14,661 nt of DNA, taken from the IMG/VR virus record IMGVR_UViG_3300027985_000432. One strand, 5' to 3'. The stretch comes from a virus. The position numbers and the translations under genes were made by a program. How positions within the stretch are numbered: position 1 is the stretch's first letter; every line of letters starts with the position of its first letter. Below are positions 3,253-4,029 of the stretch, piece after piece. Below the pieces are notes generated by a model. It searched no databases and was not told the DNA's origin. It worked only from the letters and a program-made list of their open reading frames with translations.

Positions 3253-3427
3253 GATAATGCACCCTTTCTTTGAATTCTTGGATTCTTTCCTCAGCATTCA
3301 TAGCTTCCGTAATTAACATTCCGGCACAATCTTGACAGTACCACCCAAGAAAAGAACCAACCGGAGTAACTGGAACATTCTTTGTAGCGCAAAATTCACA
3401 ATCTCCAAAGATGACTTGTTGTTCCAT
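3242..3427 (-). CDS. small zinc-ribbon-like protein, 61 aa (CEFC...CQDC)
   Basis: ORF-track entry. It has two CxxC pairs. Its ATG 3425-3427 overlaps the TAA of the HD gene (TAATG). Its 3' end overlaps the next start by 11 nt. Confidence 0.45.
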   Translation of the reverse strand: MEQQVIFGDCEFCATKNVPVTPVGSFLGWYCQDCAGMLITEAMNAEERIQEFKERVHYHDK

Positions 3428-4029
3428 TAGCTATCTCCTCTCTCAAGCTTCTCCCACTTTTCACGGATGATGCGCGCAGCACGGTTGATTCCCATCAACT
3501 CTCCAGTCGTATCTGCCATACCACTCGTCTTAATCTCATTGTAGACTTCTTTTAAAGTATCAATCACAATCTTATCTTTAATCGAAGGAAGCGTTCCAAG
3601 AATCTTTCTTGCTCCTTCATACTTACCCTTTAAATACTTATACCACTCTTCCTTCTGCTCCTCTTTATCTAAGCGATAATCGGAAGTATTATGATCGATA
3701 TCCCTTATCTTAACGTAATGACTAACATCATTACTCATGACCCGAGCCAAATAGTTTAAGTAAGGTTCTCCTTTAACTTTTGTGATACAAATAACTGCAT
3801 CAACCAAATGATGAGGAATCCCAGCTTTAAGTAGATCAGTTACTGTCCAGCTTGTATCTTCAAGAACGTCATGTAATAAAGCAACAATCTTCTGTTCATC
3901 TGTTTCACAAAGGAGAGCGACATGTATAGGATGATTGATATAAGGTGTTCCACTTCTATCATATTGTCCCGCATGAGCCATTATAGCGATATTAATCGCA
4001 GTCTGTACTAACTGATTCGTGTTACACAT
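3427..4029 (-). CDS. SpoT/RelA-type HD-domain (p)ppGpp/alarmone pyrophosphohydrolase (small alarmone hydrolase, MESH1-like)
   Basis: HAGQYDRSGTPYINHPIHVALL...IVALLHDVLEDT matches the SpoT-hydrolase HD signature (H...HP..VA...LLHDV[IL]EDT). It is 200 aa, single domain. The SD AAGGAGGT lies 9 nt upstream of the ATG. Confidence 0.75.
   Translation of the reverse strand: MCNTNQLVQTAINIAIMAHAGQYDRSGTPYINHPIHVALLCETDEQKIVALLHDVLEDTSWTVTDLLKAGIPHHLVDAVICITKVKGEPYLNYLARVMSNDVSHYVKIRDIDHNTSDYRLDKEEQKEEWYKYLKGKYEGARKILGTLPSIKDKIVIDTLKEVYNEIKTSGMADTTGELMGINRAARIIREKWEKLERGDS

Follow-up and report, generated by a model that had tools for sequence, protein, structure and literature searches.

The subject of this analysis is a small hydrolase gene carried by a 14,661-nucleotide (nt) stretch of viral DNA (IMG/VR virus record IMGVR_UViG_3300027985_000432), which was analysed at its full length and is called the window hereafter. 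The gene lies on the minus strand at 3427..4029, runs from ATG to TAA and encodes a protein of 200 amino acids (aa), assigned here by similarity to the Aph1/PbcSpo-type small alarmone hydrolases (SAHs). The ATG is preceded by a Shine-Dalgarno sequence, AAGGAGG, whose end lies 10 nt before it. An earlier note on this DNA had described the product as a SpoT-like alarmone hydrolase and had quoted two motifs; the open reading frame (ORF) and both motifs were found as described, and direct reading of the letters placed HPIHVALL at residues 33-40 (nt 3910-3933) and LLHDVLEDT at residues 51-59 (nt 3853-3879). The length of the hydrolase is no assembly artefact, since an independent Logan assembly (L001) encodes an identical protein of 200 aa. 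The same assembly also shares the neighbouring genes, namely cREC (108 aa), a 61-aa ORF and a 144-aa ORF. The GC content of the hydrolase gene (38.5%) and its GC content at third codon positions (34%) resemble the values in the neighbour genes, and composition was therefore ruled out as a signal of recent transfer.

Alignments of relatives, together with a phmmer alignment to the Protein Data Bank (PDB) entry 7smg (Aph1 from Bacteroides caccae), delimited a catalytic HD core at residues 1-145 (3595..4029, minus strand). The metal-binding and catalytic residues of this core are H33, H53-D54, E57-D58, D110 and N114, so that the histidine of the HP motif, the HD and ED motifs and the aspartic acid and asparagine of the DxxxN motif of RelA/SpoT-homologue (RSH) hydrolases are all present. 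Each of these residues (H33, H53, D54, E57, D58, D110 and N114), along with Y137, is invariant across the aligned relatives.

Profile, sequence and fold comparisons showed that the protein belongs to the RSH small alarmone hydrolase superfamily. It matched phrog_990 ("metal-dependent phosphohydrolase") at 7.9e-43, and a partial match to TIGR00691 (spoT_relA) scored 52 bits. Homology at this level is well outside chance. The Pfam HD_4 model, proposed in the earlier note as a check, also gave a match, but a partial one (residues 11-76 against profile positions 1-68 of 156) that scored 26.5 bits, just under the gathering cut-off of 27.2. Poor coverage of the Aph-like branch by this model is probably responsible, because two multidomain relatives with an Aph-like domain likewise fall below the cut-off. 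When all PDB sequences were searched with phmmer, 7smg was the best match (E 3.8e-30). The alignment pairs residues 1-134 of the hydrolase with residues 1-136 of 7smg, is ungapped over the first 102 residues and includes the C-terminal Y90-E143 region that defines the Aph1 family. Matches to Rel, SpoT and MESH1 were much weaker (6.6e-09 to 4e-04), so that by E-value some 20 orders of magnitude separate Aph1, the nearer relative, from any Rel or SpoT protein.

Fold comparison led to the same family. An AlphaFold2 model of the hydrolase, built from 26 sequences, had a mean predicted local distance difference test (pLDDT) score of 87.5. The top Foldseek matches were the four chains of 7smg, with target-normalised template modelling (TM) scores of 0.87-0.91, root-mean-square deviations of 1.5-2.1 A and 38-40% identity. 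MESH1, SpoT, Rel, PaSAH and RelH followed with E-values about four orders of magnitude weaker. All Foldseek matches at E<=0.001, and nearly all of the matches listed, were RSH hydrolases or RSH-family structures. The profile, PDB and Foldseek evidence thus identified an RSH hydrolase rather than a dGTPase or YqeK-type HD protein, the two assignments that had been named beforehand as contrary outcomes.

Among proteins of sequenced phages, gp220 of Salmonella phage PVP-SE1 (169 aa, annotated as a metal-dependent phosphohydrolase) was 38% identical to the hydrolase (E 2e-22). This protein is most likely the PVP-SE1 PbcSpo SAH assayed by Jimmy et al., because the roughly 100 kb viewed of the PVP-SE1 record (146 kb) contained no other close hydrolase-like match. 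A second PVP-SE1 protein named "hydrolase", gp162, was considered as the counterpart and rejected as unrelated to the query. We infer the placement of the window hydrolase in the PbcSpo group from similarity rather than from phylogeny.

Residues that determine substrate choice in Aph1 were compared next to the catalytic ones. The passages of Ahmad et al. 2023 (PMC10083569) that deal with specificity name six Aph residues that distinguish the family from ppGpp hydrolases (D24, R96, D116, R119, K133 and Y134). There, R119 occupies the space needed by the guanine O6 and D24 replaces a conserved Rel arginine, and only the D24R/R119A double mutant of Aph1 gained ppGpp activity. The same passages report that 12 of 12 purified Aph1 homologues hydrolysed ppApp and that two of the 12 had modest ppGpp activity. 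The window hydrolase possesses five of the six signature residues: D24, R96 and R119 bear the same numbers, and K136-Y137 align with K133-Y134. Position 116 is serine, with aspartic acid at 117, and this is the sole exception at that column in a ten-sequence alignment. Residues 25 and 26 are arginine and serine, as in Thermus Rel (R44/S45), whereas Aph1 has lysine and alanine. The guanine-stacking arginine of Rel (R43 in TtRel) is absent; D24 is found in its place, and R119 is also present. The adenine-type signature (D24, R96, R119 and K136-Y137) therefore makes (p)ppApp and, on grounds of chemical analogy, 3'-pyrophosphorylated A76 of tRNA the expected substrates, rather than (p)ppGpp. A single adenine-type pocket would suit both, since ppApp and pyrophosphorylated A76 each present an adenosine 3'-diphosphate. 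As judged from these residues, the call for (p)ppApp specificity is strong but not absolute.

Beyond the core, residues 146-200 (55 aa; 3430..3594, minus strand) form a C-terminal extension with two predicted helices (150-169 and 174-196). The model has pLDDT values of 74-79 in this tail, and its net charge is about zero (10 K/R and 10 D/E). No convincing database match covered residues 146-200 in the protein libraries and phage loci searched, and nearly all relatives in the phage loci retrieved are 137-165 aa long. Apparent tail-length matches reaching residues 189-192 in two phage loci (L045 and L050) and in Serratia phage ChuuTotoro were rejected, because tblastn had read through a stop codon and on into the ORF that follows; the true proteins behind them are 137 and 159 aa long. 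A 954-aa database protein (P0043) aligned to residues 9-197, and this candidate was likewise set aside, the alignment beyond residue 145 being weak and running into a degenerate second repeat. Judged by these comparisons, the two-helix tail is a feature unique to the window hydrolase. The description of the protein as single-domain in the earlier note is roughly right, but it leaves out this extension, which no relative has. The compact eight-helix Aph1 protomer, which has no helix 9, is not matched either, as the model of the hydrolase adds two C-terminal helices. In the structural passages of PMC10083569, the Aph1 tetramer forms via the termini, and the additional C-terminal helix of other SAHs reportedly clashes with this assembly. 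It might therefore be speculated from the model that the tail alters the oligomeric state of the hydrolase.

The hydrolase lies within a chain of genes, all on the minus strand, in the order cREC, hydrolase, 61-aa ORF, 144-aa ORF and Pnk-HD. The first of these (4022..4348) encodes a cREC_REC protein (cyclic-phosphate-processing receiver) of 108 aa that matched PF20274 (4.2e-22) and phrog_1479. The cREC stop overlaps the hydrolase ATG by 8 nt (ATGTGTAA). The hydrolase had been thought to head the chain; it is instead the second gene, because the upstream cREC overlaps its start. The downstream coupling that had been proposed, from the hydrolase through the two small ORFs to Pnk-HD, was confirmed at every junction. 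The start of the 61-aa zinc-ribbon-like ORF with a CxxC...CxxC pattern (3242..3427) shares TAATG with the hydrolase stop at 3427, the 61-aa ORF in turn shares 11 nt with the 144-aa orphan ORF (2818..3252), which ends in CxxC-x11-CxxC, and Pnk-HD (1910..2806), a P-loop polynucleotide kinase joined to an HD phosphoesterase, starts 11 nt beyond the end of the 144-aa ORF. The Pnk-HD assignment comes from AAA_33 (5.7e-07), HD (2.8e-04, below cut-off) and phrog_505. Neither the 61-aa nor the 144-aa ORF had a match in Pfam, PHROG, NCBIfam or PADLOC, neither had a relative in the 128 phage loci searched, and the 144-aa protein found only itself among 5.8 billion proteins. PADLOC yielded nothing meaningful for the hydrolase or for the genes around it.

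A terminator-like hairpin on the minus strand (4415..4440), after the preceding 188-aa gene, probably marks where the unit is bounded upstream. Between the hairpin and cREC lies a promoter-like TTGATT-17-TATAAT with a TG extension (4374..4402, minus strand), which is a consensus match only. It is the sole promoter-like site on the strand of the chain and is regarded here as a candidate. The chain had been attributed to one strong promoter. Such a promoter is not established, because the promoter scan as a whole returned 10 sites against 12.1 expected from shuffled sequence and was thus not above chance.

The Pnk-HD gene is present where the chain had been said to end, but it is interrupted by an in-frame TAG (2750..2752) directly past the P-loop (GISGCGKSTV*REY). 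Homologues of Pnk-HD were found in two other phage loci (L090 and L102). The L090 homologue (38% identity) has one in-frame TAG of its own elsewhere (11281-11283, VIV*APIS). The residues aligned to the two TAGs in homologues are alanine or valine in one case and leucine in the other. The TAG of the window could be due to pseudogenisation, sequencing error or local read-through. Genome-wide recoding of TAG was considered and rejected: TAG ends four of the 31 minus-strand gene calls counted, further stops follow the TAG of a 207-aa gene, and the window contains neither a second split gene nor any tRNA gene. A local event at the Pnk-HD TAG is conceivable.

Further RNA-repair genes were found upstream of the chain on the same strand of the window. 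An RNA ligase is encoded at 9796..11190 (phrog_968 1.7e-57, TIGR02306 1.2e-08), and a RlaP RNA-repair nucleotidyltransferase at 12852..13373 (PF10127 9e-07). The RlaP ORF is short, with 173 aa covering profile positions 2-139 of 249, and an HNH endonuclease gene (13358-13888, minus) overlaps its start. A protein of 94 aa resembling the RecBCD inhibitor gp5.9 of T7 (11556-11840, minus; PF25708 8.3e-12) is likely to represent a second counter-defence gene on the strand of the hydrolase. A SEC-C zinc motif protein of 133 aa (849-1250, minus; PF02810 1.1e-07), in which the motif is followed by a long charged tail, sits among small overlapping ORFs downstream of Pnk-HD.

An MVP-like protein of 803 aa (6065-8476, minus) carries eukaryote-type domains (MVP_shoulder 1.2e-22, Vault_3 5e-11) and had no PHROG match. 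Relatives of it with 44-63% identity mark 30 related phage loci, many of them on contigs of 130-240 kb. In these phages the MVP-like gene usually stands beside RNA-repair genes, and HNH relatives also adjoin it in several of them (L103, L109, L116 and L123). The repair genes within 10 kb of the MVP-like gene were counted with single-sequence tblastn, a test that very distant relatives could escape. RlaP relatives were present in 17 of the 30 loci, RNA ligase relatives in 12, Pnk-HD relatives in five and cREC relatives in four; relatives of the hydrolase, the 61-aa ORF and the 144-aa ORF were present in none. By the same type of search, no hydrolase relative was detected in 16 other phage cREC loci, and no relative of cREC, Pnk-HD or RNA ligase in 80 phage SAH loci. 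The linkage of the hydrolase with RNA repair was accordingly absent from all 126 related loci compared (30 + 16 + 80). The earlier note had seen alarmone hydrolysis and RNA end-healing joined in a single early transcription unit; the link is real in this contig, but it is not conserved. By these comparisons, the RNA-repair island is a feature of the phage group, and the hydrolase with its two small companion ORFs is a lineage-specific addition, since the repair genes recur in the related loci and the SAH never does.

Analysis of phage SAH loci covered the best 80 loci, of which 16 representatives were listed. In 11 of these 16, an ORF of 513-602 aa precedes the SAH, either directly or with one ORF of about 70 aa between them, and several SAH loci continue into genes of phage structural type. 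Phage_Mu_F was detected on three of the seven such long upstream ORFs scanned, and one long ORF with no Pfam match has a Tas1-like C-terminus (1.3e-25 to 6ox6). The presence of Phage_Mu_F and Tas1-like ORFs upstream of the SAH therefore identifies these loci as the published module of a MuF-Apk toxin and Aph immunity (compared toxin-SAH loci: L023, L044, L062 and L018). The window does not match this arrangement: cREC lies upstream of the hydrolase, and a scan of 29 window ORFs revealed neither an RSH synthetase nor a MuF domain. Stand-alone SAHs were found in varied early regions of large lytic phages, including PVP-SE1, ChuuTotoro, Aeromonas T4-like phages and Rhodococcus phage Weasels2.

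The family to which the hydrolase belongs is very common. In a library of 1.84 billion proteins, 16,140 cluster representatives were found at E<=0.001 and 6,172 at E<=1e-10. At least 502 confirmed IMG/VR phage contigs carry a relative according to an alignment-based scan, and 223 GenBank phage records do so at E<=1e-8. A search of IMG/VR for close relatives gave one weak locus only; it was the alignment-based scan that brought out the relatives. The nearest non-self proteins are 43-54% identical, and megablast of the whole window against GenBank phages gave no match, so no close sequenced relative is found there. The hydrolase is hence a divergent member of a known family that is abundant in phages. 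Several database relatives show fused or repeated domains: P0070 joins ADP-ribosylglycohydrolase, Macro and Aph-like HD domains, P0034 is a long RSH (HD_4 and RelA_SpoT synthetase) to which a second domain, Aph-like and C-terminal, is added, and a tandem duplication is suggested for P0029 by the two stretches of its alignment to the query.

Overall, our analysis suggests that the hydrolase is probably an Aph1/PbcSpo-type adenosine 3'-pyrophosphohydrolase that removes the (p)ppApp and/or the tRNA 3'-pyrophosphate made by toxic alarmone synthetases. The operon would be expressed from cREC onward into Pnk-HD, the hydrolase included, and the HD/ED metal centre (H33, H53-D54, E57-D58, D110 and N114) would cleave the 3'-diphosphate from an adenosine nucleotide. 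By this route the enzyme would clear away what is made by toxic small alarmone synthetases (toxSAS) of the host or of competitors (Tas1/Apk, FaRel and CapRel/FaRel2/PhRel types), and ATP pools and/or tRNA charging would survive infection as the outcome. The idea that the enzyme detoxifies such synthetases had already been put forward for this gene, and it is consistent with what has been reported for the family: Aph1 and its 12 homologues hydrolyse ppApp, and the SAH of PVP-SE1 acts against all five toxSAS classes. In the relevant passages of Jimmy et al. 2020 (PMC7229694), the PVP-SE1 PbcSpo SAH neutralises CapRel, PhRel2, FaRel2, PhRel and FaRel. According to the corresponding passages of Kurata et al. 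2021 (bioRxiv 10.1101/2021.04.30.441581), ATfaRel, a PbcSpo SAH from Cellulomonas marina, restores aminoacylation of tRNA whose CCA ends have been pyrophosphorylated by FaRel2. In agreement with action on foreign toxins, the window contains no RSH synthetase or MuF toxin gene; in most of the best 80 phage loci, by contrast, a gene for a MuF/Tas1-like toxin comes before the SAH.

Several points weigh against this interpretation. The window spans 14.7 kb, whereas related phages lie on contigs of up to 130-240 kb, and a cognate toxin could be encoded elsewhere. Some ppGpp activity may be retained, because S116, where nearly all relatives have aspartic acid, and the Rel-like R25-S26 deviate from Aph1. 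The equation of gp220 with the tested PVP-SE1 SAH, although most likely, was deduced from the roughly 100 of 146 kb that were viewed. Finally, the gene context is weak as evidence of function, because the linkage between the hydrolase and the repair genes is not conserved.

The operon itself invites a narrower interpretation, in which the hydrolase is a dedicated RNA end-healing enzyme whose sole role is to strip the 3'-pyrophosphate added by CapRel/FaRel2-type toxins from tRNA CCA ends, with the tail helping to bind tRNA. We consider this unlikely, although several observations agree with it. The hydrolase overlaps cREC and is chained into Pnk-HD, and RNA ligase and RlaP are encoded on the same strand within 10 kb. 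SAHs of the PbcSpo group restore pyrophosphorylated tRNA, an activity that the authors liken, in the passages concerned, to that of the T4 Pnk 3'-phosphatase. A tRNA ends in a 3' adenosine, which would fit an adenine-type pocket. Against these stand the linkage, which none of the other loci compared shares (0/30, 0/16 and 0/80), and the tail, which is not basic and gives no support for RNA binding; the passages of the Aph1 and SAH literature considered here report no tRNA assay of Aph1-type enzymes. A related proposal, which we hold only tentatively and regard as a minor possibility, is that the hydrolase was recruited as a fourth end-healing activity beside cREC (cyclic phosphate), Pnk-HD (5'-OH and 3'-P) and RNA ligase/RlaP; the C-terminal hairpin, and perhaps the two cysteine-rich orphan ORFs, would then adapt the enzyme to an RNA substrate. 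If this were true, the protein would not be an alarmone hydrolase but would serve the virus as a dedicated "tRNA de-pyrophosphorylase".

Self-immunity is a rather improbable explanation. Here the hydrolase would protect the infected or lysogenic cell against a MuF-fused (p)ppApp synthetase toxin of the phage itself (an Apk2/Aph1-type module), encoded beyond the 14.7-kb contig. This is the characterised role of Aph1 in the passages of PMC10083569, and it agrees with the long upstream ORFs in 11 of 16 SAH loci, three of seven with Phage_Mu_F and one Tas1-like. However, the toxin normally lies immediately upstream in the head-morphogenesis module, and in the window that position is taken by cREC, with no toxin domain in the 29 ORFs. 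Toxin-free stand-alone SAHs are, moreover, common in large lytic phages, and an SAH was found in none of the 30 related phage loci. The small chance left to self-immunity exists because the available 14.7 kb are part of a probably much larger genome.

The claim of the earlier note that the protein is a canonical (p)ppGpp hydrolase used to collapse the host stringent response is doubtful. The HD and ED motifs are common to Rel and SpoT, R25 and S26 resemble the guanine contacts of Rel, two of the 12 assayed Aph homologues had modest ppGpp hydrolysis, and GenBank annotators often name relatives ppGpp pyrophosphohydrolase. The similarity to Rel/SpoT (about 1e-8) is nevertheless far below that to Aph1 (3.8e-30), and the HD_4 match is partial and under its cut-off. 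D24 and R119 are both kept, and the mutant data cited above indicate that ppGpp activity of Aph1 was undetectable unless both were mutated. This D24/R119 signature leaves little support for a collapse of the stringent response. The correction has a general value, as an HD/ED motif alone does not imply ppGpp or the stringent response.

It is very improbable that the hydrolase acts together with cREC on another phosphorylated adenosine substrate (NADPH, pAp/PAPS, or a product or signal derived from ADP-ribose): cyclic ADP-ribose or 2',3'-cyclic phosphates are the predicted targets of cREC, which is tied in passages of PMC7824862 to NAD+/ADP-ribose systems, the fold relative MESH1 is an NADPH phosphatase that binds PAPS, and P0070 joins an Aph-like domain to ADP-ribosylglycohydrolase and Macro, but this substrate is without direct evidence, the Aph1 specificity signature is largely intact and the association with cREC is not conserved.

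The preferred reading, an adenosine 3'-pyrophosphohydrolase directed against toxic alarmone synthetases, can be set beside the known systems. Aph1 (7SMG) resembles the window hydrolase in being phage-encoded, in its 40% identity over the whole Aph1 domain, in its fold (TM about 0.9) and in its HD, ED, D110, N114, D24, R96, R119, lysine and tyrosine residues. Unlike Aph1, the window hydrolase has S116 for D116 and R25-S26 for K25-A26, bears the extra 55-aa two-helix tail and is part of an RNA-repair chain, not a neighbour of a MuF-Apk toxin or of a small second immunity gene. The PVP-SE1 SAH and the window hydrolase both stand alone in large phages with no adjacent toxin. gp220 shares D24, R119 and the lysine-tyrosine pair and itself has D116; PVP-SE1 carries an RNA ligase about 6 kb downstream of it on the same strand. 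Unlike the window hydrolase, gp220 has no C-terminal extension and no coupling to cREC or Pnk-HD. Rel, SpoT and SAHs of the MESH1/PaSAH type have the same HD_4 fold and HD/ED chemistry. All of these enzymes hydrolyse ppGpp; the window hydrolase lacks the Rel-type arginine at position 24, and its similarity to them is far weaker (E 1e-8 to 1e-4).

The passages of Iyer et al. 2021 (PMC7824862) on jumbo phages predict that HD-alarmone PDease genes counter alarmone-based immunity, and that kits for RNA repair in phages are made up of cREC, RlaP, Pnk and RNA ligases. Those passages treat the alarmone PDease and the repair kits apart, whereas the window, and this contig only, embeds the hydrolase in a repair chain. 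Counter-action of phage SAHs on toxic alarmone synthetases is already known or predicted, and in this respect the hydrolase is one more divergent example that leaves the picture unchanged. What is distinctive here is the embedding in an RNA-repair operon and the unique C-terminal tail. If the enzyme acts on pyrophosphorylated tRNA, toxSAS counter-defence would join classical phage RNA repair.

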